DNA of 64,000 bases from assembly GCA_965212625.1 (NCBI GenBank), contig OZ243124.1:2007898-2071897 (forward strand), written 5' to 3'. The notes under the pieces are model-generated. The model was not told the origin of the DNA, did not search any database, and saw nothing but the letters and a program-made list of their open reading frames with translations. The number at the start of each line of letters is the position of its first letter. Position 1 is the stretch's first letter. Both the position numbers and the translations under genes were made by a program. Below, in pieces: positions 6,161 to 29,983 of the stretch. The stretch comes from Nitrospirales bacterium (GTDB lineage: Bacteria > Nitrospirota > Nitrospiria > Nitrospirales > UBA8639).

Positions 6161-6197
6161 GTCGTGCGCTTGAGCGGCATGCATTGGAGGTGAACCC

Positions 6198-9194: not shown

Positions 9195-9223
9195 CGGCCC
9201 ATTCACGCACGATTAAACGCCCC

Positions 9224-9975: not shown

Positions 9976-10014
9976 AGAGGGACTCGTTGCTGCCCGTAGC
10001 CAGGGAGGAAGACG

Positions 10015-10269: not shown

Positions 10270-10349
10270 AGTTTCTGCTTGACGTGCGTGCGGCGTCACG
10301 CAGTTTGCCGCCGTGCTGCCGGCGGTGCCAAGGTGATGAGAGGAATTGA
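10266..10349 (+). pseudogene. Truncated DUF5615 (PIN-like toxin partner of DUF433) remnant
   Basis: GTGA overlap with the DUF433 stop. VKFLLDV... matches the MKFLLDENL start typical of DUF5615. Stops after 27 codons. Confidence 0.45.
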
Positions 10350-10352
10350 CTC

Positions 10353-11639: not shown

Positions 11640-11643
11640 GCCG

Positions 11644-12297
11644 GTGCATTTCGAGGTGCTGGTCGAGGACAAGTCGGGAAGCGTTGCGCTTGACTGTCTG
11701 TTGGAAAAGATTCTCGGTGCAAACGGAGCAGTGCATTCCTGGAAAACGTTCGCCTACAAAGGTCTTGGTCGCATCCCGAAGAATTTGCGCGGGGTCACGG
11801 ATCCGAGGAAACGGATTCTTCTGGATCGACTGCCGAAACTCTTGCGGGGATACGGGCGGAGTCTCCCGCAATCTGACGCGGTGGTGGTCGTCGTGGACTT
11901 GGATCGCAGGGATTGCAGGGCATTCAAGCGGGAGTTGCTTGGCGTGTTGAATGCGTGCCGGCCGCGTCCGAGAACGCTGTTCAGGATTGCCATTGAGGAA
12001 AGCGAAGCGTGGTTGTTGGGAGATCGTGCCGCGGTCAAGGCGGCCTATCCCGGCGCAAAGGATTCCGTTCTGAACAGGTACGTGCCGGACAGTATCTGCG
12101 GCACGTGGGAAGTGCTTGCGAATGCCGTCCGTCCCGGCGGGGCCGCACGGCTCGGGCAATCCGGCTATCCCGAGACGGGAACGGCAAAACGTGAATGGGC
12201 CGAAAAAATCGCTCCCCACGTGGACGTGCATCGGAACCGGTCGAAAAGTTTTCAGGTATTTCGAGACGGGGTGAGAGATCTTGCAGGAATCGGTTAA
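11644..12297 (+). CDS. DUF4276/TOPRIM-like small partner protein
   Basis: GTG 11644 lies 5 nt after the ATPase stop. VHFEVLVEDKSGSVALDCLLEKIL resembles DUF4276-type N-termini with a conserved acidic residue. The longer ORF from 11479 overlaps the ATPase and is unlikely. Confidence 0.45.
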   Translation: MHFEVLVEDKSGSVALDCLLEKILGANGAVHSWKTFAYKGLGRIPKNLRGVTDPRKRILLDRLPKLLRGYGRSLPQSDAVVVVVDLDRRDCRAFKRELLGVLNACRPRPRTLFRIAIEESEAWLLGDRAAVKAAYPGAKDSVLNRYVPDSICGTWEVLANAVRPGGAARLGQSGYPETGTAKREWAEKIAPHVDVHRNRSKSFQVFRDGVRDLAGIG

Positions 12298-12300
12298 CTC

Positions 12301-13695
12301 ATGGACCAAATTACACTAAAAAACTTCCGCTGCTTCCGCGAAGAACAGACCGCCCGCCTGGCCCCTCTGACCCTCCTCGTCGGCGAAAACAGCACCGGCA
12401 AAACCTCCTTCCTGGCCCTGATCCGGGCGCTGTGGGACCTTGCCCGCCGGAATCGTGTTCCTAATTTCAAGGAAGAGCCCTATGATCTGGGCAGCTTTGA
12501 CGAAATCGCTCATCACCGGGGAGGGAGGGGAAGTCAGGCTGAGACATTTGAGGCAGGGTTTGTTGTCACTCATGAAGACCGGCAAAAAGACTGGCGAACG
12601 ACGAAGGATGTCAGCTATCGGCTCAACGTCGTTTTTGGAAAGAAAGGAACTGTCCCAGTTCTGATGAAGAGATGTTTTTCCAATGAAGAAGAGGGTATTC
12701 GGATCGAATTCAGCCGCAGTCAAGACCCTTATAAAGATGTATCATGGAAATTTTCCGTCGTCACGCCGAAAGGAGAGTGGACGATTGATGATGGCATACT
12801 TTGGCTTGATGACGATCACATGTTGTCAGCGGACTTTTTTCGGGATTCTTATCTGGGCGGGATAGGCGGGAAATCCTGGCTGGATCTTGCAGATTATAGT
12901 CTCGTTGTACGACGCGGTTCCGGACAACCTGACGACAGTGATTGGGAACTGATTAAACGGATTTACGATGCAGAACAGAGATTCCGTGGTTGCAAACCGT
13001 TGTATGCCAGCGCGCCGGTTCGATCTAAACCGCATCGAACGTACGATCCCTCGCGCCCCACGCGGGACCCCGAAGGCGATTACGTTCCGATGTATCTTGC
13101 CGACTTATATTTTCGAGACGTGACACGATGGAAGGCTCTCAAAGATGCACTCGAAAAGTTCGGAAAGGAGGCTGGTCTTTTCGACGAAATCTCGGTGATG
13201 CCTCTTGGAAAAACAGCGAGCGGACCGTTTCAGTTACAGATCAGGAAATTTGGGCGTAAGGCAAAAGGGCCGCAGCGCAACCTGATTGACGTTGGCTACG
13301 GAGTCAGCCAAGTGCTGCCCGTCATTACCGAATTGCTGCGCGACGACGCTCCACCGATTTTCCTCTTGCAGCAACCGGAAGTACATCTTCATCCCAGCGC
13401 CCAAGCTGCTCTCGGAAGCCTGCTGTGTCAGGTCGCCACGCCCTGGCGTCAACTGGTGGTTGAAACACACAGCGACCACCTGCTTGACCGGGTGCGCATG
13501 GACGTCCGCGACGGCGTAGGGAATCTCAAGCCCGAGGACGTGTCCATTCTGTATTTCGAGCGCGACGGCTTGGACGTTCGCATTCATTCTCTACGGCTGG
13601 ATGAAGAGGGAAACGTCCTGGATGCGCCACCGAGTTACGGCGCGTTCTTCATGGAAGAAACGGAACGGTCCGTCTGGAAGCGCCATAAAAAATAA
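12301..13695 (+). CDS. AAA_15-type ATPase with DUF3696-like C-terminus
   Basis: 464 aa. ITLKNFRCF...LTLLVGENSTGKTSFL (Walker A). IFLLQQPEVHLHP (Walker B). VVETHSDHLLDRV. Confidence 0.6.
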   Translation: MDQITLKNFRCFREEQTARLAPLTLLVGENSTGKTSFLALIRALWDLARRNRVPNFKEEPYDLGSFDEIAHHRGGRGSQAETFEAGFVVTHEDRQKDWRTTKDVSYRLNVVFGKKGTVPVLMKRCFSNEEEGIRIEFSRSQDPYKDVSWKFSVVTPKGEWTIDDGILWLDDDHMLSADFFRDSYLGGIGGKSWLDLADYSLVVRRGSGQPDDSDWELIKRIYDAEQRFRGCKPLYASAPVRSKPHRTYDPSRPTRDPEGDYVPMYLADLYFRDVTRWKALKDALEKFGKEAGLFDEISVMPLGKTASGPFQLQIRKFGRKAKGPQRNLIDVGYGVSQVLPVITELLRDDAPPIFLLQQPEVHLHPSAQAALGSLLCQVATPWRQLVVETHSDHLLDRVRMDVRDGVGNLKPEDVSILYFERDGLDVRIHSLRLDEEGNVLDAPPSYGAFFMEETERSVWKRHKK

Positions 13696-13704
13696 GAATC
13701 TGAA

Positions 13705-14172
13705 ATGTGTGCAATCGTTGACGCCAATGTCGCCAATGAGGTGTTCGGCCCCCACCCGACTCCGGCGGGAGAGAAGTTCCTTGACTGGGTCAACGGGGGA
13801 AGTCACCGTCTGGTAGTCGGTGGCAAACTGCTTGGTGAACTCGCAAAGAGTTCGCAGGACTTTAGAAAGTGGATGAGTCGGGCCATGCGTACCGGAAAGA
13901 TGAAAGTGTTGGACAAAAATAAAGTCAGCACAAGGACCGACCGGATCGAGCAAGAGAGGCTGCACACGTCAAATGATCCTCACGTGCTCGCCTTGGCCCA
14001 ACTGAGCGGCGCCCGCTTGTTGTACTCCAACGATGCGAAGTTGCAGCAGGATTTCAAAAACAAAGACTTGATTGACCGTCCTCAAGGAAATATCTACTCA
14101 ACACGACAGAACAAAAATTTCACAAGGACACATAAACGGCTGCTTGGCAGGCAAGATTTATGCAAAACCTGA
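13705..14172 (+). CDS. PIN-like domain protein
   Basis: MCAIVDANV... at the N-terminus and SNDPHVLALAQLSGARLLYSNDAKL near the C-terminus fit PIN acidic motifs. Tightly linked to the upstream ATPase. Confidence 0.4.
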   Translation: MCAIVDANVANEVFGPHPTPAGEKFLDWVNGGSHRLVVGGKLLGELAKSSQDFRKWMSRAMRTGKMKVLDKNKVSTRTDRIEQERLHTSNDPHVLALAQLSGARLLYSNDAKLQQDFKNKDLIDRPQGNIYSTRQNKNFTRTHKRLLGRQDLCKT

Positions 14173-14884
14173 TTGACGCCATTCACGTCAAAGGCTTCCG
14201 TTCCCTCGCCGACGTCAAGATCGACGATTTGCCGAGGGTCGCCGTCTTGATCGGCGCCAATGGATCCGGGAAGTCCAACTTCATCCGCTTGCCTCGCATT
14301 TCAAAAAGAAGTGGGACGTGGGAGACAATAACTATCTTCATGCACACGGCGGCAATCTGGCTTCGGTTCTGCTTCTCCTGGAACGTGAAGATTTCCAACG
14401 ATTCGAGAGGATATGTCACCACATTGGTCGGGTGCTGCCGGTCTTTGACCGTTTCCAGATAGAAGAGAGTTACGGTAGAGCCTCGTTGAGATGGAAAGCG
14501 AAGGGGACGGACAAAACTTTCGGTGCGCACCTGACGTCCGACGGGTCGCTTCGTTTTTTTGCCCTGACGACATTGTTGAATCTCCCGCCCGAGATGCTCA
14601 CCGACGTGATCTTCCTGGACGAACCGGAGTTAGGTTTGCATCCGGCGGCGATGACCTTGGTCGGCGGCATGATTCAAGCATTTGGATATGACAGGCAGGT
14701 TATCGTCGCAACACAATCGCCTCTGCTTGTGGATACGTTCAGTCTCAATGAAATTATTGTGCTGGAACTGCAAGACGGCGAAACGAAGATCCGCCGGCTT
14801 GATCCAGATGAGTATCAAAACTGGTTGAAGGAATATACGACGGGCGAGCTTTGGCAAAAGAATCTTCTCGGTGGCCGTCCGTGA
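14160..14884 (+). pseudogene. AAA_21-type ATPase, frameshifted and internally deleted
   Basis: The N-terminal part (IHVKGFRSLADV...VLIGANGSGKSNFI) is in one frame up to ~14290. The C-terminal part (SDGSLRFFALTTLL..., IFLDEPELGLHP, VATQSP) is in another frame from 14318. Only ~15 codons separate Walker A from the distal half. Confidence 0.65.
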
Positions 14885-14940
14885 TCCGTCTCGCCATATC
14901 GGTGGAAGGTCAAATTGCCCGCGGTTTTGCGAATGGGTGA
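14881..14940 (+). pseudogene. 19-codon stub resembling a DUF4276 N-terminus
   Basis: GTGA overlap with the upstream stop. VIRLAISVEGQ... then a stop. Confidence 0.3.
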
Positions 14941-15011
14941 CGCGCTTAGAGTCACTGGGGAATCCGGTGTGAATCGCTGCGCGGGGAAACGATCGAGGAG
15001 GGAGATGTCCA

Positions 15012-17822
15012 ATGGCGCTTGAACCTTGGTACAAAGCTGTCACGCCTCGCCGGGAAGTGCGCGAAGGCCGGTCGTTCAGCCCGGATGAGTTCGCGATTGC
15101 GCTGGAACAGGTCGTCGCCGGGACCGCGCCGGAGGACTACCGGGACCCGGCGCAGTTTTTCGCCCGTACCTGCTTCACGCGCGCGCTCAAGGACCATACC
15201 GGCATGGTGCTCCGGCGCCTCTCCGGCCGAACGGAAAACACGTCGCCGGTTTTGACCCTGATAACCCAGTTCGGCGGCGGCAAGACGCATACGCTCACCT
15301 CGCTTTATCACCTCGCGCGAGCCGGCGCGAGTGCCTCTCAACTCCCGGGCGTGGGGGATCTTCTGAACGAGGCCGGGATCGCCGCCGCTCCCGCCGCTCG
15401 CGTCGGTATCTTCGTCGGCAACGCCTGGGACCCGCAAGACGGCAGGGAAACGCCGTGGATCGACGTCGCCCGGCAACTCGCCGGGGAGAAAGGCGTCAAG
15501 GAACTCGGACCCGCGGCCAGAACCACGCCTCCCGGCACCGAGGCGATTGCCCGCGTCTTCAAAGCGGCCAACGCGCCGGTCCTCCTTCTGTTCGATGAGG
15601 TCCTGAATTTTCTGAATCGGCATCGTGGATTGGCCGAACCGTTCCACGCTTTTCTCCAGAACCTGACGGTCGCCGCGACCGCCACGACGCACGGTGCGGC
15701 GGTCATCAGCCTGCCTCGCAGCCAAGTCGAGATGACCGACTGGGACGTGCAGTGGCAGGAGAAGATCACGAAGGTGGTCCGGCGCGTGGCCAAGGATTTG
15801 ATCGCCAACGACGAGGCGGAAATCAGCGACGTGATCCGGCGTCGGCTGTTCGAGAACGTCGGCCATGACCGCCACCGGAAGAAGGTCTCGAAGGCGTATG
15901 CGGACTGGTGCTTTGAGCGGCGAGCACAACTCCCGCCCGAATGGACGGCGGTGGACAGCGTCACAACGGAGAGCAAGGCCAGAGAATATTTGCGCAGCCG
16001 TTTCGAGGCGTGCTTCCCGTTCCACCCGTCAACGCTCTCCGTCTTTCAACGCAAGTGGCAGGCCCTGGCCCAATACCAACAAACCCGCGGCACGCTGGCC
16101 ATGCTGGCCCAATGGATATCGTGGGCCTTCAGGGAAGGGTTCACGATGGCCAGAACGGAGCCGCTCATCACGCTGGGGTCCGCACCGCTTGACGTGCCGG
16201 AATTCCTTAGCGTGGTGCTCGGTCAACTCGGTGAGTCCCGGCTGGTGGCCGCCATTGACGCCGACGTTTCCGGTGCGCAGGCGCACGCCCGCGCCTTGGA
16301 CGCGGATACCAAGGGTGCCTTGCGAAACATCCACCGGCGCGCCGGAACGACGATCCTTTTCGAGTCCTCCGGCGGCCAGATCGACAAAGTGGCCCACCTG
16401 CCGGAACTGCGCTTTGCGCTCGGTGAACCGGACGTCGATACCACGTCGATTGATCACGCCGCCTTCGCGCTTGAGGACAAAACGTACTTCATCCGGCGCA
16501 TCGGGTCGGACGGATTCAAGATCAGTCACCAGCCCACCATGAAGAAAGTTGTCAGCGACCGGCGCGCTTCTCTGGATGAAGAAACGGAGATACGTCCGGT
16601 CATGCGTTCAATGGTCCAAAGGGAATTCGACCGGGGCGCGACGCTCCCCATCGTGCCGTTTCCGGCCGACGGTTCATCGGTGCAGGATACGCCGAAGTTG
16701 ACGCTTGTCGTCGTTGCACCGGAGTCGGACTGGACCGGTCTGCCGCAGCACGGGCAGGCGGGCACCGGCAACGTCCGTGAGCAAATCCGGGAATGGACGA
16801 AACAGCGCGGCACGTCACCCAGGCTGTACCCTGCTTCGCTTGTCTGGTGCGTCAAGAAACCCGGACGCGACCTGCGGGATACAGTCGAATGGATGCTGGC
16901 CTGGAAGCGCGTGGCTAAGGAGATCACCGACGGTACCTTGGGTGGGGATTTCGACCGGACGGACCGCACCGAAATCCAATCCAAGGTGGCCGAGGCTGAG
17001 ATGGCCGTGAAGGACGCGATTTGGGGCAGTTACCGTTTCGTGGTCATGGCCGACGGCCTGCCCGCGCAGGCGGGCCACGAGTCGGACGGCCTGAAGAGCA
17101 TTGATCTGGGTGCGGGGCATTCGAGCGGAGTTGAAACGCTGTGTGCTCGCGTCGTGACGGCTCTGAAGTCCCAAGCGATCCTCAACGATTCCATCGGCGC
17201 CGGCTACGTCGAACGAAACTGGCCACCGGCCCTGATGGAGTCCGGGGCGTGGCCGCTGACGAGCCTCCGTCAGAGTTTTTTGAATGGGTCGCTCACGCGG
17301 CTGCTCGATCCGGATGCCACGCTTCGCGCCAAGATCGTCGAGTTCGTCAGTCGGGGCGACTTTGGCTTGGCCTCAGGCCGGCAGTCGGACGGCACTTACG
17401 AACGGACCTGGATCAACGAACCGGTCCCGATTGAAGAAGTCACCTTCGACCCCGGCGTGTTTTTGCTTCGCAAGGACAAAGCGTTGGCGCTGAAGGCCAT
17501 GCCGGAACCGCAACCAATCCCCGATCCTTCCCCGAAGCCAGAGTGTGGCCCGGCACCGTCACCGGGCCCCGAATCCACGTCGCAATCCGACGCGCCGGTG
17601 AGCGAAGCCCCCCGGACCATCCGCCTGCGCGGCGACGTTCCGCCGGAGATCTGGAACCGACTCGGCACCAAGTTGCTGCCGAAGTTACGCAGTGGAGCAC
17701 ACCTGACCATCGGCATTGAATTCTCAGTAACAGTCGAAGGCCGGATGGCCCAGGGACTCACGGACGAGTTGAAACAAATCCTCACCGACCTGGGTTTATC
17801 GGAAACGGTGAACGTTGAGTGA
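15012..17822 (+). CDS. DUF499-family ATPase
   Basis: 936 aa. N-terminus LEPWYKAVTPRREVREGRSFSPDEFAIALEQVV and P-loop QFGGGKTHTL match my recollection of DUF499. Confidence 0.7.
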   Translation: MALEPWYKAVTPRREVREGRSFSPDEFAIALEQVVAGTAPEDYRDPAQFFARTCFTRALKDHTGMVLRRLSGRTENTSPVLTLITQFGGGKTHTLTSLYHLARAGASASQLPGVGDLLNEAGIAAAPAARVGIFVGNAWDPQDGRETPWIDVARQLAGEKGVKELGPAARTTPPGTEAIARVFKAANAPVLLLFDEVLNFLNRHRGLAEPFHAFLQNLTVAATATTHGAAVISLPRSQVEMTDWDVQWQEKITKVVRRVAKDLIANDEAEISDVIRRRLFENVGHDRHRKKVSKAYADWCFERRAQLPPEWTAVDSVTTESKAREYLRSRFEACFPFHPSTLSVFQRKWQALAQYQQTRGTLAMLAQWISWAFREGFTMARTEPLITLGSAPLDVPEFLSVVLGQLGESRLVAAIDADVSGAQAHARALDADTKGALRNIHRRAGTTILFESSGGQIDKVAHLPELRFALGEPDVDTTSIDHAAFALEDKTYFIRRIGSDGFKISHQPTMKKVVSDRRASLDEETEIRPVMRSMVQREFDRGATLPIVPFPADGSSVQDTPKLTLVVVAPESDWTGLPQHGQAGTGNVREQIREWTKQRGTSPRLYPASLVWCVKKPGRDLRDTVEWMLAWKRVAKEITDGTLGGDFDRTDRTEIQSKVAEAEMAVKDAIWGSYRFVVMADGLPAQAGHESDGLKSIDLGAGHSSGVETLCARVVTALKSQAILNDSIGAGYVERNWPPALMESGAWPLTSLRQSFLNGSLTRLLDPDATLRAKIVEFVSRGDFGLASGRQSDGTYERTWINEPVPIEEVTFDPGVFLLRKDKALALKAMPEPQPIPDPSPKPECGPAPSPGPESTSQSDAPVSEAPRTIRLRGDVPPEIWNRLGTKLLPKLRSGAHLTIGIEFSVTVEGRMAQGLTDELKQILTDLGLSETVNVE

Positions 17823-17839
17823 ATCCAGCGTCCGTAGGC

Positions 17840-18893
17840 CTCCAATTCCCCTTCAAAACTGGTGCCAGCTTGGGTATCGATCCTCCAATTCCCCTTCAAA
17901 ATTGGTGACTACCGTGCCCAACTCCCTCCAATTTCCCTTCAAAACTGGTCTGCAACGGTGGGAGGAACCTCCAATTCCCCTTCAAAACTGATGACGACTA
18001 CAGCGGTGCGCCTCCAATTCCCCTTCAAAACTGGTGTGTCATGATCCGTCCTTCCTCCAATTCTCCTTCAAAACTGGTAAGGAACATCATGACCAAACCT
18101 CCAATTCCCCTTCAAAACTGGTTTGATACGCGCGCCACAGCCTCCAATTCCCCTTCAAAACTGGCCTGAAGACGTTTGTCCAGCCTCCAATTCCCCTTCA
18201 AAACTGGCATCATCACGATGTCCTTCCTCCAATTCCCCTTCAAAACTGGCTGCGCGGTCTTGGCGATGCCTCCAATTCCCCTTCAAAACTGGCCTGAGGC
18301 AGATGTATTTGCCTCCAATTCCCCTTCAAAACTGGTTCAACTTTCCTTTGGCGACCTCCAATTCCCCTTCAAAACTGGTTCACTCGCCAAATTATGGCCT
18401 CCAATTCCCCTTCAAAACTGGTTCCCAAGATAGTCGTTTTCCTCCAATTCCCCTTCAAAACTGGTTTCCAGCAACGGCAGGGTCCTCCAATTCCCCTTCA
18501 AAACTGGTAGCCAAAAAACAATTTCGCCTCCAATTCCCCTTCAAAACTGGTCGTGGTGCCGATCGCAACCTCCAATTCCCCTTCAAAACTGGTCCAGGAA
18601 CTCAACCTGAGCCTCCAATTCCCCTTCAAAACTGGTCTCAAAGAGACTGGAGGTCCTCCAATTCCCCTTCAAAACTGGTTGATCATCGTCTCTCCTTCCT
18701 CCAATTCCCCTTCAAAACTGGTGAGTCCATCCGCGCAGGACCTCCAATTCCCCTTCAAAACTGGTTATCGCAACGCGTGGCGGCCTCCAATTCCCCTTCA
18801 AAACTGGTTTGGTGATCTGAAAAATGCCTCCAATTCCCCTTCAAAACTGGTGCCGCCGTCCGCGTCGGCCCTCCAATTCCCCTTCAAAACTGG
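17840..18893 (-). CRISPR. CRISPR array: 25 repeats of 24 nt (+ strand CCTCCAATTCCCCTTCAAAACTGG), 24 spacers of 18-20 nt
   Basis: Repeat starts are spaced 42-44 bp. Repeats 7-25 are identical. Repeats 2, 3, 4 and 6 carry single substitutions, marking the old end at the left. AT-rich leader lies at the right end. The strand call is an inference from this polarity. Confidence 0.95.
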
Positions 18894-18953
18894 TCATATA
18901 TCAGTTAACCATGTATATTTCAACAAATTTTTGATTTTTTCAAAGAGTTATTT
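18894..18953 (-). promoter_or_regulatory. AT-rich CRISPR leader with a candidate minus-strand promoter
   Basis: About 75% AT against a GC-rich background. On the minus strand: TTGAAA (18918-18923), 17 nt, then TATATG (18895-18900), directly abutting the first repeat. Confidence 0.35.
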
Positions 18954-19982
18954 ATGCCTGAAATTAGTGAATTTCAACATCCAGATTCAATTTGGACATG
19001 GAAGTCAAATAAGCGTAGGAGAAAGACAACCTTGTGGCTGCCTTATGTCTCTCGGGTGGAGAGTGTCAAGAAGAGAGTCTGGCGGTTTACATATAACGGA
19101 GGCGAGGTCGACACCGATGTGGCACGGCTTGATTGCGTCATGTTTTATGGCGCGACGGGACAGATTCCCATTGCGCTCATTGACGATCTTGCCGCGCTCC
19201 GCGTGCCGCTGCTGGTCCACCGGCGCAACATCGGCCGCCCCGCCGTCTTTTTGCCGGCGCCCAGAGCCGATGCCGACGACATTCTGACGAAACAGATCGT
19301 CGCCCGCACGCATGGCCCGAAACGCGCCTACCTTGCGCGAACCCTGGTGCGCGAGCGGTTCCGAGGCGTGGCAGGCACCTTCTCTCTCCCCGATACGGCC
19401 TATCGGCGGCTTGCCCTGACGCGCACCCTCGGGCAGGTCCGCCTCTGGGAGGCCGAGCACTCACGCAAATACTGGAGGAAGTATTTCGCCAGCCTGGGCC
19501 ATCCGGACGTCACACGGCGGGAGAAAGGGCCGCTCCCCGCTGCGCTCGATGCCGGTTCCATGTTTCTGTCGGGGATTCTCCTCCGCTGGCTGTTGATCCA
19601 CCGGCTTTCACCCAGTCACGGCTTCCTCCATGAAGGGACCGATTACATGGGGCTTGTGTACGATCTCATGGAGCCGGCACGGTACATGATTGAAGAGGCA
19701 CTCGCCGTTGCGTGCAAGTCTCATCTCCCGGACGGCGATGCTGACTCGCTGACGAAATCGACTTTATCCGCAATAAAAAACAACTTGGAAAAGGTTGTCT
19801 ACGTTCCCGCGACCCGTCAGTCCGTCCGCCGCAAAAACCTGTTGCACGGAAACGTGCTGGCACTACGGGCCTATCTTGCCGGCGACATGCGTCGGTTCGT
19901 CATTCCCACCGCGGGGGAACGCAAAGGGGGGCGGCCGCCAAAAGTTTCGTACTGGCTGCCGGGTGATATTCCTTCGAGGTGA
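18954..19982 (+). CDS. cas1: CRISPR-associated integrase Cas1
   Basis: WEAEHSRKYW and GFLHEGTDYMGLVYDLMEPARY match conserved Cas1 Glu/His/Asp-Glu motifs. The start is uncertain: ATG 18954 lies in AT-rich sequence, and a TTG near 19032 is possible. Confidence 0.8.
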   Translation: MPEISEFQHPDSIWTWKSNKRRRKTTLWLPYVSRVESVKKRVWRFTYNGGEVDTDVARLDCVMFYGATGQIPIALIDDLAALRVPLLVHRRNIGRPAVFLPAPRADADDILTKQIVARTHGPKRAYLARTLVRERFRGVAGTFSLPDTAYRRLALTRTLGQVRLWEAEHSRKYWRKYFASLGHPDVTRREKGPLPAALDAGSMFLSGILLRWLLIHRLSPSHGFLHEGTDYMGLVYDLMEPARYMIEEALAVACKSHLPDGDADSLTKSTLSAIKNNLEKVVYVPATRQSVRRKNLLHGNVLALRAYLAGDMRRFVIPTAGERKGGRPPKVSYWLPGDIPSR

Positions 19983-19986
19983 AAGT

Positions 19987-20069
19987 GCCTCCCCTTTTTG
20001 AAGGGCACCCGGGGAGGCGGGGGCGCCTTCCAGGTTGAGGTATGGATGTTAATCCTTGTGCCTGGAAGG
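19987..20069. ncRNA. Candidate anti-repeat (scout/tracr-like) RNA or bidirectional terminator: two hairpins
   Basis: Hairpin 1: gcctcccc (19987-19994) pairs with ggggaggc (20011-20018). Its 16-nt loop contains ttttgaaggg (19996-20005), the reverse complement of repeat positions cccttcaaaa. Hairpin 2: ccttccagg (20026-20034) pairs with cctggaagg (20061-20069). Confidence 0.35.
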
Positions 20070-20092
20070 GAATGTGGGGACATGGTCGGTTA

Positions 20093-23000
20093 TTATCGCT
20101 GCTGGGTCAAGTCCCGCCGTGATTTTTCGGAGTCAATCCGTTCAAAAAAACGCCGTCCGATGTTGATCGATGCGTTTTCATCCGCGTGTCCCTCGAAACC
20201 GCAATCTAGATAGACGCATCTGAAACGGGACTGCGTGGTGTCGGAAGACATTTCGGATGCCGGAGGTTGGCGCATGTTTCGCTTAGCGATAGACTCGACG
20301 CGATGACGCGGTTCGGTCCCTTTTGAGATTGGGACGTTCAGCGGCGGTCTTTCCTTGCGGTGGCGGAAGTTCTTCAAAGCATTGGGCGGATAATCAGCTC
20401 GGTTGAGAAGCCGTATCGTCCCGTTTTTAAGGGCAACGTGGCCAGATTCTCCCACCTCGATCTTGTCCGGCATGTTCCGAAGCTCCTGAAGTGCGTTCCG
20501 GCCGCACCGGTGGCAGGTCTGGCTGGTGCCGGCGGGGTTTACCTTGATGCCGGGGAAGAGGCGAAGCGGCTTGGACGGGCCGGAATACTGATTTTCCGTC
20601 GTGTTCCAGTTCTGGACGTAGATGTAAGGGTGTTCCCAGGTATCTGCCGTGAACCAGTGTTGACGGCGAATGGTCTTGTGCGCGTCCACTTCCGAATACA
20701 CGTAACGCCGCAGGACCGACCCGTAGATCATCTCTAGCTGCCGGCCCCCCGATTCAAAATTGCCAACCGATCTTTCGAGTATGGGAAACCCACGGAACCG
20801 TTCGCACAGGGTCTCAATGCGGTTGCAGACGTCTCCCACGATGTTTTCCCGGAACTGCATCAGGGCGTTCGAGTAGGTCTGGCCGACCTTCTGGTTGGGT
20901 TGCCGCGAACCGCGGTGCCGGCGGACCGCGGCTTGCAATTTCCTGAAGGTGGGAATTGCGACGCTACCGACCTCGAACGGGTCTCGGCAGCCGCTTTCCA
21001 CGAACTTCTTCAGCGAGAAGATCGCGTATCCGATGCGCCGTTCGCCAAGGTCGATGGCAACGATGTTGTCGAAAAGCAGGGCGTCCTTGGTTTCGGGATA
21101 AGGCCGTTTGTCAACGACGGGAACGGCAAGCTCAGCCCGAATTTTCACCGGCTCCGCCGAAAGGCGCACATTCTCACCTTCCAGTTTCAAGGACTGCTTG
21201 AACACCCGGTCCAGGAGCAACGTGTAGTCGCCGAGTTTCACGTCCTTGTCCCTCACGGTCTCCGTCAAGGTGCGGTCCAGCCATGTCTTGAACGAAGGCG
21301 GTCCGACCAATCGAAAGGCCGGCCGTTTGAGAGGTCTCCACCGTTTGAGATCGGTCGCGTTCTTCTTCACGGGCAATCCGGCTAGCCGCGGCGCCGTACC
21401 AGAGCGGAGGTTGAGTTCGACGAACCAGTCGTGGGGCGCTTGGCGCAACAGTGCCCGCGAACCCGGCTCGGGAAAGTTCGCCTTGCTCAAGCCCTCCACT
21501 GTCTTCCGGGGTAGAACCGCGATGGTTTGATCACGCACGACCGCTGGGAGTGCCAAGCCTTTGGCAATCTCGCCCTTGGCTGAGGAATAGTCCGCGGGCG
21601 GCTGCCAAGGGCGGTCCTTCGGGACATAAAACAACTCTTCGTGGTCAAGGCGCAAAAACTTTGCGCGCACGATGAAACTGTCACGAAACGCACGAAACGA
21701 AAGTCCATTGATGTCGCTGTTGAAGAGATTAAACGCGCGCACGGCGACGTTACGGGGAACTGTTTCTGCGTCGAGTTGCGCCGCGAGCAAGGGCGGAATG
21801 TCGACGGCGGCGGTGGCCGGTCTTGCCAAGTGCCCGGGAACAGAGTCGGGCAGTCCGGCGAGCCGCGTCGTAAAGACGAACTCTTCAACCAACAACAGGT
21901 CCCGGAAATGCGCGTGATTCGCGTCTGGAACCGACCTAAGTTCCTTGCGGATTTCCGCTGCGCGCTGCTCCAACCAGGCGAGCCAGTCAATTGCCCGGGC
22001 GCGGTCCATATCGAGACCGTATGCTTGATGACGGGATGTACTGAAAGGGTGCCGATAGATGGCGCCGCTGCGGTTGTGGAAGTAACGATTGGCTTCCTTC
22101 TCATTCAGAAAAATCGGCGTCATTGCTTCCCGAACTCGCCTGGCTGCGCGGGACGACAGCCTGCGCGACATGGCAGCGATGCGGTGAAGCAGGCGTCGAA
22201 GGGCGTATTCGGCCGCAAGACTAGAATCTATCTTACGGTCGGAGAGCGCCTTTCGCTCGCGTTCTTCCAAAGCGGGAAACGGATCAAGAGCAGCACCGCC
22301 CACCCATTCGGTAAGCCGCCGGAAGTGCTCTCGACGCCCCTGCATGGCGCCATTCAGGCGGGTTTCCAGGCGTTGAATCTCGCCGCGCGCGTCGTCGGTT
22401 CCGCCGGATATCCTGTTCAGCTTCGGCAGCTTGGGGAGCTTTTTCAATTCCTTAGAGAATTCCCGCTTAAGCGATTCGAGGCGGTTTGCGCGAGCTTCGT
22501 CTTCGGCGGATTCTCTTTCCTGCTCAAGACGGTTGTCCAACATGGCGAATTGACCCCTCAGTTCGGTCAATTCACTTGCCACGGTGTCGATAGTTTCGAT
22601 CTCCTGCGGCCCTGGAATATCGCCACCTCTCAAGATGGCGAGCGCGGCGCCGGCTTCTTGGACTCGCTCGGGAACACGATCGGAGAGGGCGACCAGACCG
22701 GCCACGTCAGTGTGCTGCCCCGAAAACAGCGAGGCGTTTTCGGCGTCTGTCAGTCGTTCAGGGATCAAGATATCTGGCGGCTGAGAATACAGCGCGGTGA
22801 GTTGACAAATCCGTTTCCAGTAGTTCGAGACCCATGAGGCGATCTTGCCGCCGACCGAGCCGCGGAACTCGGCGTAGCCGTCCGTCTCGAAGATCGGGTT
22901 GACCGGAATCGCGTCTGCGAACACTTTGAGTTGCTCTACCCGTCGCAGTTCTGTGTGAGGGACGGCGAGGGCTTCAACGAGGTGCTCAATACTTGATTGA

Positions 23001-23893
23001 CGAAGGAAGCACAGACCCTTGCCGAACAACCAGGACAACCCGTTATTCTGGCTGGTGACGACCTCTCCATTCAAACGGCCGGCAAATTTGGACGATGTCG
23101 GATCGAGCCCGGGCATGTCCCGTTGCAGTCTGCCGGCGCAAACCGCCACCACCTGATGAAGCCAAATTGCTTCGTTGCCGTCCATGTCCACGAACGGCGA
23201 TTCGGGATCGTGGGCGAGTGTGCCGGACGGACCTCTTCTGCGGTTACATACAGGTGGAAGCGCGCCGATCTTTGGAAAAGAATCTCCAAGAGTTGCAAAA
23301 TACTCGTCTGCGCACGCCAACGCGCCCTCGACAGCGTCGGCGAGGTACTTCCATCCGGAGAATTTTGCGGTGACTTCTGAGGCTATTCCCTTAGCCAACG
23401 ATAATTCAGGCTGATCTTTCTCCGTCTCCTTCGGTGAACGGTTGTTCCAGTCTTGAAACAATCGTCGTGTAAGTTCGTCCGCCGACCACGGGCGCTCAAC
23501 CCCGCCTCTACTTTGTGGGGAAGTGGTAAGGACCTTTTCGATTGACCGGACTGTAACGGCAGGGTTCGTGATTTTGGCGTGTACGGTGAGCGCCGCGGCA
23601 AAGGCAGCTTCGGGGTAGTGCCTTCGATTCACGAACTGGCGTGTTTCCACTTCTTTGGAAAACAGCCGGAACCCGGATAGGTGAATCGCACAGACCAAGC
23701 CGATCAAGCTCCCCCGTGCAATCCCCTCGGTGACGTCGTATGTCCGAGCAGCCGTGTCGAAGTCTATATCGCCGTCCTGGACGTCCAGCTTGAACTTGTA
23801 CGTAAAGACGCTTTCCTTCTGTCGGCGCGCCAATGCGGCTACTTTACGCCGCCAGTCGCGGGCATTCTGACCACCGTAATATTCTCGTCTCAT
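20093..23893 (-). CDS. cas12: Type V CRISPR effector, Cas12c/Cas12d(CasY)-like
   Basis: RuvC-I is IVAIDLGERRIGYAIF. RuvC-II is FPILERSVGNFESGG. RuvC-III is GHADENASINIGRRF. Zn-ribbon cysteines: TSQTCHRCG ... CVYLDCG. ATG 23893 follows GGAG with an 8-nt spacer. The open frame extends to 23983 (1296 aa). Confidence 0.85.
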   Translation of the reverse strand: MRREYYGGQNARDWRRKVAALARRQKESVFTYKFKLDVQDGDIDFDTAARTYDVTEGIARGSLIGLVCAIHLSGFRLFSKEVETRQFVNRRHYPEAAFAAALTVHAKITNPAVTVRSIEKVLTTSPQSRGGVERPWSADELTRRLFQDWNNRSPKETEKDQPELSLAKGIASEVTAKFSGWKYLADAVEGALACADEYFATLGDSFPKIGALPPVCNRRRGPSGTLAHDPESPFVDMDGNEAIWLHQVVAVCAGRLQRDMPGLDPTSSKFAGRLNGEVVTSQNNGLSWLFGKGLCFLRQSSIEHLVEALAVPHTELRRVEQLKVFADAIPVNPIFETDGYAEFRGSVGGKIASWVSNYWKRICQLTALYSQPPDILIPERLTDAENASLFSGQHTDVAGLVALSDRVPERVQEAGAALAILRGGDIPGPQEIETIDTVASELTELRGQFAMLDNRLEQERESAEDEARANRLESLKREFSKELKKLPKLPKLNRISGGTDDARGEIQRLETRLNGAMQGRREHFRRLTEWVGGAALDPFPALEERERKALSDRKIDSSLAAEYALRRLLHRIAAMSRRLSSRAARRVREAMTPIFLNEKEANRYFHNRSGAIYRHPFSTSRHQAYGLDMDRARAIDWLAWLEQRAAEIRKELRSVPDANHAHFRDLLLVEEFVFTTRLAGLPDSVPGHLARPATAAVDIPPLLAAQLDAETVPRNVAVRAFNLFNSDINGLSFRAFRDSFIVRAKFLRLDHEELFYVPKDRPWQPPADYSSAKGEIAKGLALPAVVRDQTIAVLPRKTVEGLSKANFPEPGSRALLRQAPHDWFVELNLRSGTAPRLAGLPVKKNATDLKRWRPLKRPAFRLVGPPSFKTWLDRTLTETVRDKDVKLGDYTLLLDRVFKQSLKLEGENVRLSAEPVKIRAELAVPVVDKRPYPETKDALLFDNIVAIDLGERRIGYAIFSLKKFVESGCRDPFEVGSVAIPTFRKLQAAVRRHRGSRQPNQKVGQTYSNALMQFRENIVGDVCNRIETLCERFRGFPILERSVGNFESGGRQLEMIYGSVLRRYVYSEVDAHKTIRRQHWFTADTWEHPYIYVQNWNTTENQYSGPSKPLRLFPGIKVNPAGTSQTCHRCGRNALQELRNMPDKIEVGESGHVALKNGTIRLLNRADYPPNALKNFRHRKERPPLNVPISKGTEPRHRVESIAKRNMRQPPASEMSSDTTQSRFRCVYLDCGFEGHADENASINIGRRFFERIDSEKSRRDLTQQR

Positions 23894-24358
23894 GAAGTGA
23901 ACTCCATATTTGGGCAATTTCACAATCCCGGTTGGTGAATTCCTTCCCCTGATGCCAAGCCAACCACCTTGGCCGATATCCATTAAGACTATGTAGCGAC
24001 ATGCCCGGTACTGTCAACGCCTAGCTTGGCTAGGGACCAAGCCTCCAGGTTGCCTCCTTCGCTGCAAGGAAAAACTGATTTCAACTCCCGAGGAAAACTT
24101 GAACCTCACGCCTACCCGCCCGCGCCGTTTGTGTGTTTGACTCTCCGATTACGCTATGCGAAAAGGCACTTCAGCGAAAGTGGAAGGGTGCGGTTCATTA
24201 TGAACTGTTCGAGACAGTGCCGGCTTAGATGGTGATCGTTTCAAGGTCCCGACCGCGTGTGTCGCCGAGGTTTCCGGTCTTGACCAGCGGCCACCCCTTC
24301 CTTGTTTGATCGCTGGGTTCCTTTGCGTCTATCAGCCACGCTTTTCCACTCGTCAAGA

Positions 24359-25964: not shown

Positions 25965-25993
25965 TTGACTCTTCGGCGTCAACGGCGTCTAAT
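25965..25993 (+). promoter_or_regulatory. Candidate sigma70-type promoter (TTGACT-17-TCTAAT)
   Basis: 28 of 31 nt identical to the element at 28278-28308, upstream of recQ. Confidence 0.4.
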
Positions 25994-26024
25994 CAACCCG
26001 TTCATTTCACTCTGGAGTCGCCGA

Positions 26025-27260
26025 ATGGATTTCCACGTCGAACGAAGTTCGAATCGCATTTCGATACAAGGTGGCGTGCAACGTCACCATTTACGGCGCC
26101 TGTGTGCGTCTCTCCATCAAACGATAGTTGATCGTGGCTTTTCCGACGTTGTCTTGGACTTTTCTGCGTGCGACGGCGTGACGGAAGCCGTGATGCTTCC
26201 ACTGATGCCAATCATTACGGACTATCGCAGACGGGGAATCGGCTTCGATTTGATTCTACCGGCGGATGCCCAGCTCAATCGGCTTTTTCTCAATGCCAAC
26301 TGGGGACACCATATCAAACCGGAACGGTATGACCGTTCTTCACACGAAGGCGGCCACGTTCCTGCCCTTCGCTTCGGTGGGATGGACGATCAAAACGAAA
26401 TTCTCGATAACGTCATGAGATTGATTCTGAGGCAACTGGAAACGGATCGGTCAACCCTGAAGGCGATTGAGTGGTCACTTGGGGAAATCATGGATAACGT
26501 ATCCAATCACGCCCAATCACCGGTCGGTGGATTCGTGCAGGCCACGGCATATACAAACAGGAACCAAGTGGAGTTCGTCGTGTCCGACGCCGGCATCGGT
26601 ATTCCCGCGAGCATGCAAATAGACAATCACGCGACGGCACTCAGAGAAGCCATTCACGAAGGGGTTACCAGAGATCCAACCCAAAACGCCGGCAACGGCC
26701 TTTACGGAAGTTATCGCGTTGCCTTGCTGTCGGGCGGTCAATTTGAGATCCATTCCTTGCACGGCCTGTTATCCGTCAACAATCCTGACGAGGGAATCAG
26801 AAATAGTCAGGAGGCGGTGCCCTACAATGGGACGTCCGTTCGATGTGCCATCACGGTCGGCGACCATGAATTGCTCAATAAGGCTCTCCGATTCAAAGAT
26901 GTGCCGCATGATCCGCCCTTTGATTATATTGAGCGTACATTCGAGCGTGGTCGGGGTGACGTGACGCTCAACATGAGAGAGCAGGCGTGGGGTGACTTCG
27001 GCTCTCGTCAGGGGGGAGTGAAGATTCGCAGCGTGATCCGGAATCTCCTGAATCTGAATCATCCGGTTATTCTCGATTTCAACGGCGTCGGCGTCATATC
27101 AAGCAGTTTCGCCGACGAAGTTTTCGGGCGTTTGTTCGTCGAGATGGGACCGCGTGCCTTCATGACGCGAATCGACATGCGGAACGTCGATCCGACCGTT
27201 GAGGGTCTGATCGATCGGGCCATCGTGCAGCGCACCCGGCTCGGGAACGGTGACACGTGA
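26025..27260 (+). CDS. STAS-like N-domain + GHKL ATPase/kinase + C-terminal DUF4325 (STAS-like) protein
   Basis: ATG 26025 follows GGAG. GHKL N-box EIMDNVSNHA, G1 VSDAGIGIP, G2 NAGNGLYG. C-terminus VILDFNGVGVISSSFADEVFGRL is typical of DUF4325. Confidence 0.55.
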   Translation: MDFHVERSSNRISIQGGVQRHHLRRLCASLHQTIVDRGFSDVVLDFSACDGVTEAVMLPLMPIITDYRRRGIGFDLILPADAQLNRLFLNANWGHHIKPERYDRSSHEGGHVPALRFGGMDDQNEILDNVMRLILRQLETDRSTLKAIEWSLGEIMDNVSNHAQSPVGGFVQATAYTNRNQVEFVVSDAGIGIPASMQIDNHATALREAIHEGVTRDPTQNAGNGLYGSYRVALLSGGQFEIHSLHGLLSVNNPDEGIRNSQEAVPYNGTSVRCAITVGDHELLNKALRFKDVPHDPPFDYIERTFERGRGDVTLNMREQAWGDFGSRQGGVKIRSVIRNLLNLNHPVILDFNGVGVISSSFADEVFGRLFVEMGPRAFMTRIDMRNVDPTVEGLIDRAIVQRTRLGNGDT

Positions 27261-27509
27261 CGCGCGTACTGCCGCGACCGGCCAGCGGCTCAACCGCCGT
27301 GAAAAATTCCGCGTTGATGGTCCTCAATGGTGTACGCAATCGTCGCATTCGGCGAAGACGCGGATGATACCGGTTTGTCTCATTGCAAACTCGTTCCGCG
27401 TCTGCTATAAACGGGGTCGTCTCAATCGTTGTGGCGGTCACAATCCGGCCCACGTGGGGCCGCTGGGTGATCGTCATGATGCCGTTAATCTTCTTTTTCG
27501 TCTTCATCC

Positions 27510-28046
27510 TCATTCTCTTCTTCGGCGGGGTCGGGCTCGTCTCCGTTCTCTCCGGCTTTGTGTAGGGCACGGCATGGCCGCGTCGGCCGTGCCGTGGTTT
27601 GGCTCGTCCTGCTTTGTCTGGTCTTGGCGCGTCGGCCGTGCTGTTTCAAGCGCGTAGGGTCGAAGCTTTTTGCGTAGTTCTTTGGAAGGGTTGGCGGTGG
27701 TATACTTGCCGCCCTTCAGCCACGATTCCGACTTCTTCCAAGCGTCAGGCGCGAACTCCAGCAGTGTATCGTGGGGCACGAGATACCAGACTCCCTCAAT
27801 GGGGAAGTTCATCCATATCTCTTTCCCTTCATACTTTTTGTCTATTCCCAGGCGGCTTTTCAGTTGGACCTTGAGGGTTGTGTCTGCATCCTTGTGGTAT
27901 GCGAGAAAATCGGCGCCTTGCCAGTCGTCCGCCAGCTTGATGCAGTTGAATCCATATTCGGCGAGGACGGCTGCGGATTTCTGAAAATTGTATATTTCCT
28001 TCTGTCTCGCACTCAGTTTCTTAAATTCGACCCGACGCAGCTTCAT
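27510..28046 (-). CDS. Small hypothetical protein, possible PD-(D/E)xK nuclease fold
   Basis: MKLRRVEFKK... with GADFLAY-x13-LKVQLKS, a D...(Q/E)xK-like pattern. The arginine-rich C-terminal tail looks non-native, and the upstream extension to 28133 lies in repeat-derived sequence. Confidence 0.35.
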   Translation of the reverse strand: MKLRRVEFKKLSARQKEIYNFQKSAAVLAEYGFNCIKLADDWQGADFLAYHKDADTTLKVQLKSRLGIDKKYEGKEIWMNFPIEGVWYLVPHDTLLEFAPDAWKKSESWLKGGKYTTANPSKELRKKLRPYALETARPTRQDQTKQDEPNHGTADAAMPCPTQSRRERRRARPRRRRE

Positions 28047-28169
28047 GCCCGTTGCCTCTGCGCCGCCGCCGGCACCATCGGCACCGCCGGAAGAAGCCGG
28101 CACATGGGAAGATGATTGCTTTGAGTTTGCCAAGTCTTCTTCCTGTCTCGTCCTGGGAAAGGGAGAGAG

Positions 28170-28198
28170 ATTGTGAAAGAGCCGTGAGCCGATGTCAA
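28170..28198 (-). promoter_or_regulatory. Candidate promoter (TTGACA-17-CACAAT) inside duplicated cassette copy A
   Basis: The homologous element at 32904-32932 is TTGACA-17-CAACAT. Confidence 0.4.
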
Positions 28199-28279
28199 CC
28201 GGTTGGCAGCCGATTTTCGACGGGTCGAGACCGCGGTCGGGCTTTGATCACCTTGAGACCGTTTGACTCTTCGGACCGT

Positions 28280-28308
28280 TTGACTCTTCGCCGTCAACGG
28301 CATTTAAT
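28280..28308 (+). promoter_or_regulatory. Candidate promoter (TTGACT-17-TTTAAT) for recQ
   Basis: The -35-containing 18-mer gaccgtttgactcttcg is tandemly duplicated here. Homologous to 25965-25993. Confidence 0.4.
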
Positions 28309-28346
28309 TCGGCGTGTCCGTAAAACAAGCAAGAGGAAAAGACGAA

Positions 28347-29873
28347 GTGAAGTACGATTCCCATCGAGCTCGCGCATTACTGAAGTCCGGCACCGGCCGA
28401 CCTGATGCCGCGTTCCGGGAGGGACAGGAAGAGGCTATTCGCCGTCTCGTGGAAGGACGCGGTCGCCTTCTCGTTGTCCAGAAAACCGGTTGGGGCAAGA
28501 GCGTTGTGTACTTCATTGCGGCCAAACTCCTGCGTGAAGCCAGAGAGGGTCCCGCGCTTCTCGTCTCCCCACTGCTTGCGTTGATGCGGAACTAGATCGC
28601 CGCCGCGGAGCGGATGGGGATTCACGCAATCCGTATCGCTTCCGACAACCAGGATGACTGGAAGGTCGGAGAAGAAGAGGTGCGATGCGGCAAGGCGGAC
28701 GTCCTGCTCATTTCCCCCGAGCGACTTGGCAACGAACGCTTCCGTACCGAGGTGTTGGCGGAAGTTGCCGAACGCATCAGCCTGCTGGTCATTGACGAAG
28801 CCCACTGCATCTCGGATTGGGGACACGATTTCAGGCCCGACTACCGGCGGATCGAACGGATCGCCCGCGACCTTCCGGCGAACCTCCGCCTTCTCGCCAC
28901 CACCGCGACCGCAAACGATCGGGTGATGGACGATCTCGCCGCGGTGCTTGGCCCCGGCCTGGAGGTGCTTCGCGGCGATCTCGACCGGCCGTCGCTCATG
29001 CTCCGGACGATACGATTACCTCGGCAGTCGCAACGGTTGGGGTGGCTTGCGGAGCAGCTTCCCGCGTTGCCCGGCTGCGGAATCATCTACACGCTCACCG
29101 TCCGGGATGCGATTCAGGTGGCGGAATGGCTCCGGTCACGAGGACTGGCCGTGGAATCCTATACGGGACAAACCGGAGACCGGCGCGAGGCCCTTGAACG
29201 GTCGTTGCTTGAGAATCGCGTGAAGGCGCTGGTCGCGACGACCGCGCTGGGAATGGGCTTCGACAAACCGGATCTCGGCTTCGTGATCCACTACCAGACC
29301 CCGGGATCGGTCGTGGCTTATTACCAGCAGGTGGGCCGTGCCGGTCGTGCGCTTGACGTGGCCTATGGCGTGCTGTTGAGCGGCGAGGAAGAGACCGACA
29401 TCACGGATTACTTCATTGCCAGTGCGTTCCCGACCCGTGATGAAGTTCGGCAGGTGATCGAAGCGCTCGAAGCCGCACCGAGCGGCCTGTCCGTCCCGGA
29501 TCTGCTCGGAAGCATCAATCTCAGCCGTGGACGCATCGAGAAGACGATAGCACTGCTCTCACTCGAATCACCGGCGCCCATCGCAAAACAAGGGACCACG
29601 TGGCAGTTGACCGCCGCAAACCTGAGCGACGAATTCTGGGAGCGGGCGGAGCGCCTGACCACCCTGCGGCATGAGGAGCAGCGCCAGATGCAGGAGTACG
29701 TGAGGCTCGAATCCGGACACATGGAGTTTCTCATCCGGGCGCTGGATGGAGATCCGGGAACCGTTCGCCCGCCGGACCTGCCGCCGCTGCCTACGGAGGT
29801 CGATCCGAGGCTCTTGCAGGAGGCGGTCACGTTCCTCCGCCGTACCAGTATACGACGTCAAGCAGAATGTTAA
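28347..29873 (+). pseudogene. recQ: RecQ-family helicase, helicase part of a RecQ-PRTase fusion, interrupted by an in-frame TAG and a MITE
   Basis: FREGQEEAI, VVQKTGWGKSVVY (motif I), VSPLLALMRN*IAAAERMGI (TAG 28593-28595 where RecQ has Q), LLVIDEAHCISDWGHDFRP (DEAH), LATTATA, VATTALGMGFDKPD, QQVGRAGR. Both ORFs are in the same frame. Confidence 0.8.
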
Positions 29874-29977
29874 AATGAGAATAGAAACAAGCGAAAACGC
29901 CTTTATTTGCAAGGCATTCACGATTATTCACAAATATTTCTCAAAATCGCAATTAACATTTTGATTGACGTCCTATA
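29849..29977. mobile_element. MITE-like insertion, 129 bp, AT-rich, ~25-bp terminal inverted repeats, 5-bp target-site duplication ACCAG
   Basis: Left end is tatacgacgtcaagcagaatgttaa. The reverse complement of the right end is tataggacgtcaatcaaaatgttaa, giving 22 of 25 matches. ACCAG is present at 29844-29848 and 29978-29982. Confidence 0.8.
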
Positions 29978-29983
29978 ACCAGC

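Follow-up and report, generated by a model that had tools for sequence, protein, structure and literature searches.

A previously unannotated subtype V-C CRISPR-Cas locus of a Nitrospirales bacterium and the guide RNA predicted for its Cas12c clade

The stretch of DNA that has been analysed comprises 64,000 nucleotides of a Nitrospirales bacterium (NCBI GenBank assembly GCA_965212625.1, contig OZ243124.1, positions 2,007,898 to 2,071,897 of the forward strand) and is called the window in the following; positions are counted within it. It very probably carries a CRISPR-Cas system of subtype V-C that is complete in its four functional parts, namely the effector gene cas12c (20093..23893, - strand), a gene for a trans-activating CRISPR RNA (tracrRNA), the adaptation gene cas1 and a CRISPR array. 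The locus is a previously unannotated member of this already known subtype. A first-pass annotation of the same DNA, made from the sequence alone, had described a minimal type V locus whose effector was Cas12c/Cas12d-like and possibly a divergent or unclassified branch. Judged by its profile matches and alignments, the large protein is a full-length Cas12c, not a Cas12d-like and not an unclassified protein, so that of the earlier description the Cas12c part has been retained. Genuinely new here are the tracrRNA and the guide architecture that are predicted for this Cas12c clade.

Effector and adaptation genes

The Cas12c equivalog of NCBIfam (NF033950) matches the large protein end to end, at positions 1-1244 of the 1246 in the model, and scores 1043.8 bits where the cut-off is 250; PADLOC assigns Cas12c with up to 1295.5 bits. 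Both solved Cas12c proteins align over the full length, Cas12c2 (7v93; E = 1.4e-147, 496 bits) along residues 37-1283 and Cas12c1 (7vyx; E = 2.6e-125, 423 bits) along residues 50-1284 of the large open reading frame (ORF). The D of VAIDLGER, the E of FPILERSV and the D of HADENAS fall on the RuvC residues of Cas12c2, D928, E1014 and D1201 (Kurihara et al. 2022, PMC9522604), as well as on the catalytic positions of Cas12c1. Within a family alignment of 22 members at 27-86% identity, the RuvC triad (D948/E1040/D1238) and the zinc ribbon (C1127/C1130/C1226/C1231) are invariant. The Cas12c2 system (V-C; PDB 7v93/7v94) has the same triad, the same zinc ribbon and, in REC1, a protospacer adjacent motif (PAM) arginine, R351, that corresponds to R344 here, and it likewise combines a 25-nt repeat with 17-18-nt spacers. 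It differs in that the window protein belongs to a distinct subclade, whose relatives are 53-90% identical to each other, while Cas12c proteins named elsewhere are at ~30%.

The large ORF extends over 20093-23983 on the - strand and includes 30 codons upstream of the real start. This start is the second in-frame ATG, at 23893, where all profiles and orthologues begin and which has a GGAG 10 nt upstream; from here the gene encodes 1266 amino acids and ends with the stop codon TAA at 20095-20093. The exact 1266-residue product is present in public data and the 1296-residue version is not. Reading the whole ORF as a protein of 1296 residues has been rejected, as its first 30 codons precede every profile and orthologue start. 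A convergently oriented protein of ~1270-1296 residues with a split RuvC and a zinc ribbon had been noted before; both domains have been borne out by the alignments, and the length has been revised to 1266.

That the effector could instead be Cas12d (CasY)-like, or an unclassified type V branch with a scoutRNA-type guide, is given hardly any probability. Cas12d systems of subtype V-D likewise combine Cas1-only adaptation with short spacers (PMC6977970) and a short trans RNA, and there is a distant similarity over the C-terminal RuvC/TNB region, which yields 47.6 bits with PADLOC and 94.9 bits with the NCBIfam Cas12d model NF033951, the latter over the C-terminal third only. This score is the next best after that of Cas12c but lies far under the cut-off of 250, while the match to the Cas12c model extends from one end to the other; the two Cas12c proteins of known structure can be aligned along the entire protein, and the guide layout with three anti-repeat segments, described below, is that of Cas12c1 and Cas12c2. 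Motifs of the protein that had been described as CasY-like align to the Cas12c2 segments GGKIDSWIANY, STDAHK and TSQTCSCCG.

The sole adaptation gene is cas1 (18954..19982, + strand), whose product of 342 residues matches the Pfam family Cas_Cas1 PF01867 (2.4e-10) and the PADLOC Cas1 profile (8.9e-20) and is also recognised as Cas1 by NCBIfam. Its Glu, His and Asp-Glu motifs (WEAEHS, FLHEG, DLMEP) align with those of solved Cas1 proteins, in keeping with the intact catalytic motifs reported at first pass. Likewise upheld is the lack of cas2 and cas4: a search of all 105 ORFs of 60-399 residues at 11.5-30.5 kb, and of the larger genes that flank the locus, has given no Pfam match to Cas2 or Cas4. 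The comparison comprises 14 related loci, from 3 species-representative genomes (1 Nitrospirales and 2 Binatia metagenome-assembled genomes, MAGs) and 11 metagenome assemblies; in these, again, no cas2 or cas4 has been found, and a Cas1 of 311-354 residues accompanies cas12c in every related locus. According to the account of Wright et al. (2019) that is given in PMC6977970, Cas1 alone integrates short spacers, and the V-C Cas1 mini-integrase described there resembles the present case in its short spacers and in a lone Cas1 of ~340 residues that is encoded next to Cas12c in the absence of cas2 and cas4. The earlier description of a minimal type V locus with Cas1-only adaptation is supported; together with spacers of 17-19 nt, such adaptation is the hallmark of subtypes V-C and V-D.

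The array and the predicted tracrRNA

On the + strand the sequence CCTCCAATTCCCCTTCAAAACTGG occurs in 25 copies between 17839 and 18893 with a period of 42-44 bp, as counted by Tandem Repeats Finder, by a repeat finder and by a direct pattern count, and no further copy is found in the window outside the array. If a 24-nt repeat is assumed, these copies enclose 24 spacers, which measure 18-20 nt and in 21 cases 19 nt, in agreement with the first-pass count. The + strand base that follows each repeat is T, with C in four consecutive units, and on the CRISPR RNA (crRNA) strand it is fixed as A or G within each of 13 loci; it is therefore counted as part of the repeat, an alternative that the earlier annotation had already raised. 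The repeat has accordingly 25 nt and the spacers 17-19 nt, with a mode of 18. In crRNA sense the repeat reads 5'-ACCAGUUUUGAAGGGGAAUUGGAGG-3', its first base being G in the four consecutive units, and the array occupies 17839..18894 of the - strand with 25 repeats and 24 unique spacers. A distant Cas12c locus at 31% identity (L023, 6082-6532) has the repeat GTCAGTTATGTAGTGAGGTATGA (reverse complement), in which the pattern CAGTTnTGnAG...T.GA(GG) of the window repeat recurs; as the pattern is common to both, conservation of the repeat family extends to distant V-C systems.

The reading of the crRNA from the - strand, from the leader into the array and away from cas1, is supported by a conserved leader on the cas1 side, by perfect repeats at this side and degenerate ones at the far end, by the guide layout of Cas12c1 and Cas12c2, and by the wobble pairs of stem 1 described below. 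The leader-proximal repeat would be the one at 18894-18870. Single mismatches occur in copies 2, 3, 4 and 6, near the distal end at 17839, and the copies toward 18893 are perfect. The AT-rich leader of 59 bp (18895..18953, - strand) separates the cas1 start codon from the first repeat and is recognised by its conserved length and blocks; it measures 59-64 bp with conserved blocks in 12 of 13 loci and 138 bp in one locus. It probably carries the promoter of the array and the integration site. A promoter scan with a strict rule has found no promoter for the array or the tracrRNA; a promoter-like consensus match that faces cas1 has been located on the + strand at 18891-18919, and the conserved AT-rich boxes of the leader could serve either direction. 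Upstream of cas12c, a further promoter-like site, TTGACA-18-CATAGT (23988..24017, - strand), matches the consensus and is conserved in the closest syntenic locus, L001.

All 24 spacers of the array differ from each other, and none of 158 spacers is common to any two of 13 related arrays, even where the flanks are 93-94% identical in DNA, which points to ongoing acquisition. Duplications internal to an array have been seen in two of the related loci: in L011 (array at 9975-10730) spacer 7 equals 8, 14 equals 16 and 15 equals 17, and in L012 spacers 1 and 2 are identical.

The gap between cas12c and cas1 measures exactly 110 bp (19983-20092), as had been stated at first pass. It is conserved in all related loci, whereas conservation upstream of cas12c is limited to syntenic genomes. 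By conservation, co-variation, duplex energy and the layout known from Cas12c1 and Cas12c2, the gap is predicted to encode a tracrRNA with three anti-repeat segments, of ~95 nt between predicted ends (19983..20080, - strand), directly downstream of the cas12c stop codon and on the same strand as cas12c. From its 5' side, the candidate consists of anti-repeat 2 (AUUCC, 20073-20069) and of stem 1 with 9 bp (CCUUCCAGG / CCUGGAAGG, 20069-20061 with 20034-20026), inside which a small hairpin, stem 2 (20055-20053 with 20046-20044), and anti-repeat 3, the 'dock' CCUC (20040-20037), are placed. These are followed by the G+C-rich, terminator-like stem 3 (GCCUCCCC / GGGGAGGC, 20018-20011 with 19994-19987), the loop of which contains anti-repeat 1 (CCCUUCAAAA, 20005-19996). 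Positions -20..-11 of the repeat are complementary to CCCUUCAAAA, positions -11..-7 to AUUCC and positions -4..-1 to CCUC, while -6 and -5 are left unpaired.

Cas12c guides are dual RNAs whose anti-repeat segments are grouped about stem 1 as an X-junction or H-shape. In the crystal structure of Cas12c1 the duplexes comprise positions -18..-11, -10..-7 and -4..-1 with -6 and -5 flipped out, anti-repeat 2 directly precedes stem 1 on its 5' side, and anti-repeat 3 directly precedes the 3' strand of this stem (PMC9723637); the cryo-electron microscopy structure of Cas12c2 shows the same guide arrangement (PMC9522604). The register predicted here is nearly identical to that of the Cas12c1 system (PDB 7vyx; Zhang et al. 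2022, PMC9723637), whose tracrRNA has ~92 nt, although the repeat and tracrRNA sequences are others. Three tracrRNA:repeat pairings around a central stem, with the last four nucleotides of the repeat paired to a 4-nt dock just 5' of the stem-1 3' strand, are likewise found in Cas12c2; the present candidate differs in its long anti-repeat, which has 10 nt and would lie in the loop of a terminator-like hairpin.

Co-variation between repeat and anti-repeats has been checked by hand. The pairing GGAAU:AUUCC becomes GGAGU:ACUCC in L010, UGAGU:ACUCA in L012 and GGUAU:GUACC in L022, and the long pairing UUUUGAAGGG:CCCUUCAAAA changes in a compensatory manner to UUCUGUAGGG:CCCUACAGAA in L002, to UUUGAAUG:CAUUCAAA in L012 and to UUUUGAGAGG:CCUCUCAAAA in L022. 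Repeat position -5, which is predicted to be unpaired, varies between G and A while the tracrRNA stays constant. When pairs are counted in an unedited MAFFT alignment of tracrRNA and repeat from 13 loci, standard pairs make up 91.3% of 473 pair cells, compared with 43-65% for slid registers, and double changes occur in 6 pairs against 1.9 expected in shuffles (reached in 1 of 500 shuffles). From the tracrRNA sequences alone, RNAalifold recovers stem 1 and stem 3, stem 1 with 9 bp, none of them broken, 4 compensatory pairs, 5 G.U and 0 A.C cells. Every one-sided change in stem 1 is a G.U wobble on the - strand that would be an A.C mismatch on the other strand, and the transcribed strand of the predicted tracrRNA is thereby fixed. 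The duplex between tracrRNA and repeat has a calculated energy of -26.4 kcal/mol, compared with -17.5 +/- 2.9 kcal/mol for shuffled repeats. Rfam lists no family between 17.5 and 24.6 kb at E<=1, and over the whole window at gathering score it gives two tRNAs only. In L002 the tracrRNA region carries a duplicated anti-repeat hairpin.

Some points weigh against this assignment. Counted over the whole hand-drawn structure, wobbles do not separate the strands (15 G.U vs 17 A.C); misalignment of distant loci is one reason why this count is uninformative, and only stem 1 in the RNAalifold alignment tells the strands apart. The long anti-repeat is enclosed by stem 3, which must open for pairing, part of the conservation of the gap could reflect a cas12c terminator, and the tracrRNA ends and all promoters are predictions. 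The strongest form of the terminator argument, in which the 110-bp element is nothing but a shared bidirectional terminator and guide maturation depends on another RNA or on none, can draw on stem 3, a G+C-rich hairpin followed by ACUUU/AUUUU, and on a terminator-like match on the + strand at 19976-19991. It leaves unexplained, however, why three repeat-complementary segments change with the repeat in four lineages, and likewise the four compensatory pairs of stem 1 and the one-to-one match with the layout of Cas12c1 and Cas12c2, and we regard it as very improbable.

Proposed mechanism and target recognition

With the tracrRNA as predicted, the system would operate as follows. Cas1 alone, without Cas2 or Cas4, would integrate spacers of ~18 bp at the repeat nearest the leader, on the cas1 side, as expected from its family. 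The array would be transcribed on the - strand from a putative promoter in the 59-bp leader into units of the form 5'-repeat(25)-spacer(18)-3', and the tracrRNA would arise from the - strand just past the cas12c stop codon, either from a promoter of its own or out of the cas12c 3' untranslated region. For guide assembly, CCCUUCAAAA, AUUCC and CCUC would pair with the repeat around the 9-bp stem 1, as co-variation and the analogy with two solved structures suggest. By the biochemistry of Cas12c1 and Cas12c2, the RuvC site of Cas12c may then cut the precursor crRNA at the 3' end of the spacer; a cut 17 nt after the 25-nt repeat has been reported for Cas12c (bioRxiv 10.1101/2021.12.06.471469). 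The resulting complex would bind double-stranded DNA beside a short T-containing 5' PAM through an R-loop of 17-18 bp.

Cas12c2 and OspCas12c bind DNA in vitro without cutting it and silence transcription (PMC9522604; bioRxiv 10.1101/2021.12.06.471469), and Cas12c1 cuts double-stranded DNA, as found in two studies (PMC9723637, PMC9522604). The V-C system of the window could interfere by cutting both strands like Cas12c1 rather than by binding alone, for which we see somewhat less than an even chance. The intact RuvC triad and the RuvC/TNB region, which taken alone is slightly nearer to Cas12c1 (216.8 bits) than to Cas12c2 (198.8 bits), are in line with cleavage, whereas the whole protein scores higher against Cas12c2 than against Cas12c1. 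An intact RuvC is no evidence for DNA cutting in the Cas12c family, because in Cas12c2 and OspCas12c this site serves crRNA processing. Silencing by binding without cutting has been rated slightly more likely than cleavage, a choice which the sequence does not decide.

The PAM reported for Cas12c is a 5' TN or TG, with TG being needed by Cas12c1 (PMC9723637). Of the two arginines by which it is read, the one at R344 is invariant in the 22 family members. The PI loop departs from the family: R137 of the Cas12c2 PI loop is needed for PAM reading and DNA binding (PMC9522604), and its equivalent in the window protein is Gln127, with an arginine two residues on (R129), which differs from Cas12c2 and speaks against an unimpaired system. 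The loop reads SPQSR (residues 125-129; window 23503-23517) in the window only, compared with a PPR(R/K)S motif, the PPR of which is found in 19 of the 22 family members and in every close relative, including the 90% cluster of the window protein. The 77 residues around the loop are more divergent (58-74% identity) than the whole protein (90% to its closest relative). If this rewiring has been selected, the enzyme may read a different PAM or one even more relaxed than TN, a suggestion which we hold to be unlikely. Were it true, ~45 naturally occurring variants of Cas12c would be available in the clade, with a compact and well-defined tracrRNA whose sequence forms the 3' tail of the effector gene.

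The protospacer search, from which the first-pass annotation had hoped to derive a PAM, has yielded none. A scan of IMG/VR with 7 of the 24 spacers has given no convincing target, 5 of them being without a match, which likewise counts against a working system. Spacer 2 matches two unrelated contigs, one of 38% GC with TG upstream and one of 58% GC with TC upstream, and spacer 9 matches one family of phages with 32% GC and one unrelated contig; both results are about what chance gives for 18-mers. T stands at -2 in 3 of 4 independent protospacer matches, which are few and probably due to chance. Among the 158 spacers, none provides a second match on the same IMG/VR contigs beyond expectation, and self-matches with up to 2 mismatches are found neither in the window nor in the related loci.

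Both the displaced PI-loop arginine and the missing spacer targets would fit a decaying or silent remnant, in which genes and array have been kept and immunity has been lost. The state of the Binatia relatives could be read in the same sense: in both MAGs (L002 and L003) cas12c is split into overlapping ORFs, these breaks being either frameshifts of long-read assembly or decay, and the array of L002 is reduced to two repeats, between which 638 bp with coding potential have been inserted (11057-11694). In the window, however, both ORFs are intact, all catalytic residues are present, the predicted tracrRNA is intact and the repeats are near-uniform with 24 unique spacers, and a locus whose DNA is 93-94% identical has an entirely different set of spacers. 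We consider a remnant improbable and prefer the reading as a complete V-C system.

Related loci and genomic surroundings

A search among 5.8 billion clustered proteins has returned 73 homologues, ~44 of which form a clade at 53-90% identity. One homologue, from a Desulfurellaceae MAG, has been named Cas12c, and so has a distant one from Vibrio. For many clade members the contig measures 1.5-6.5 Mb, comes from a Nitrospirales, Binatia or Desulfurellaceae MAG and provides an ordinary chromosomal context, so that a chromosomal setting, which had been thought unusual for such a locus, is common among these relatives. V-D is typical of bacteria of the candidate phyla radiation, and the window clade differs in being found in the large chromosomes of the three groups just named.

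The module consists of cas12c, a gap of ~100-145 bp, a convergent cas1, the leader and the array in every locus of at least 39% identity. The convergence of cas1 and cas12c, which had also been listed as unusual, is common to all 13 related loci examined, at 39-90% identity. In the 31%-identical relative the array lies between co-directional cas12c and cas1 genes; convergence is therefore a trait of the clade and not a rule of V-C. The surrounding genes vary by locus (recA/alaS, rho/purH, thiolase, restriction-modification genes and others), and as the neighbours differ between loci, the module moves as a unit. The window itself is 84-94% identical at the nucleotide level, flanks included, to the Nitrospirales MAG and to three metagenome contigs.

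Upstream of the array, a defence island extends over 45-17822. It contains a Ppl-like protein with PHP and ATPase domains (45-2789), two Schlafen/AlbA_2 paralogues (2786-4030 and 4545-5813), the HmaB DUF1156 methylase (6198-9194), a HEC-01A ATPase (10353-11639) with its partner, a DUF4276 protein (11479-12297), an NsnB-like ATPase (12301-13695), an AAA_21 fragment (14318-14884) and the HmaC DUF499 ATPase (15012-17822). HmaB and HmaC are separated by ~6 kb, in which the HEC-01A, DUF4276, NsnB-like and AAA_21 genes are found, and no Hma helicase has been identified adjacent to either. The array begins 16 bp past the stop codon of the DUF499 gene, not 18 bp as first noted. Its position beside an allegedly unrelated gene is also less peculiar than had been assumed, as this gene is HmaC of the Hma defence system within a defence island, and only in the closest relatives do gene and array stand side by side.

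On the other side of the module, a histidine-kinase-like ATPase fused to a STAS-like DUF4325 domain (25965-27260) adjoins the V-C genes, as it does in L001 and L006. L001 and L006, although syntenic in other respects, lack a stretch of ~4.6 kb at ~27308-31961 that encodes a DEAD/Helicase_C protein (28614-29873) and a DprA/SLOG-HTH protein (30556-31878); this stretch has the appearance of an indel in the island. In the right flank the DNA is that of an ordinary chromosome, with genes for a solute symporter, tRNA-Val, thrS and an SRAP peptidase. The tRNA-Val(GAC) gene (34866-34940) is placed directly upstream of thrS and overlaps the predicted thrS ATG at 34940 by one base; a tRNA-Gln(TTG) gene is located at 60331-60404, and no ribosomal RNA has been found in the window.

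Known CRISPR biology is unchanged by this locus. Cas12c has drawn interest by its minimal TN PAM and by members that protect cells through DNA binding without cutting. The window protein belongs to a well-populated and apparently unstudied Cas12c clade in free-living genomes of Nitrospirales, Binatia and Desulfurellaceae type, for which the comparative analysis yields a predicted guide design consisting of the crRNA polarity, a 25-nt repeat, a tracrRNA of ~95 nt and three pairing segments.

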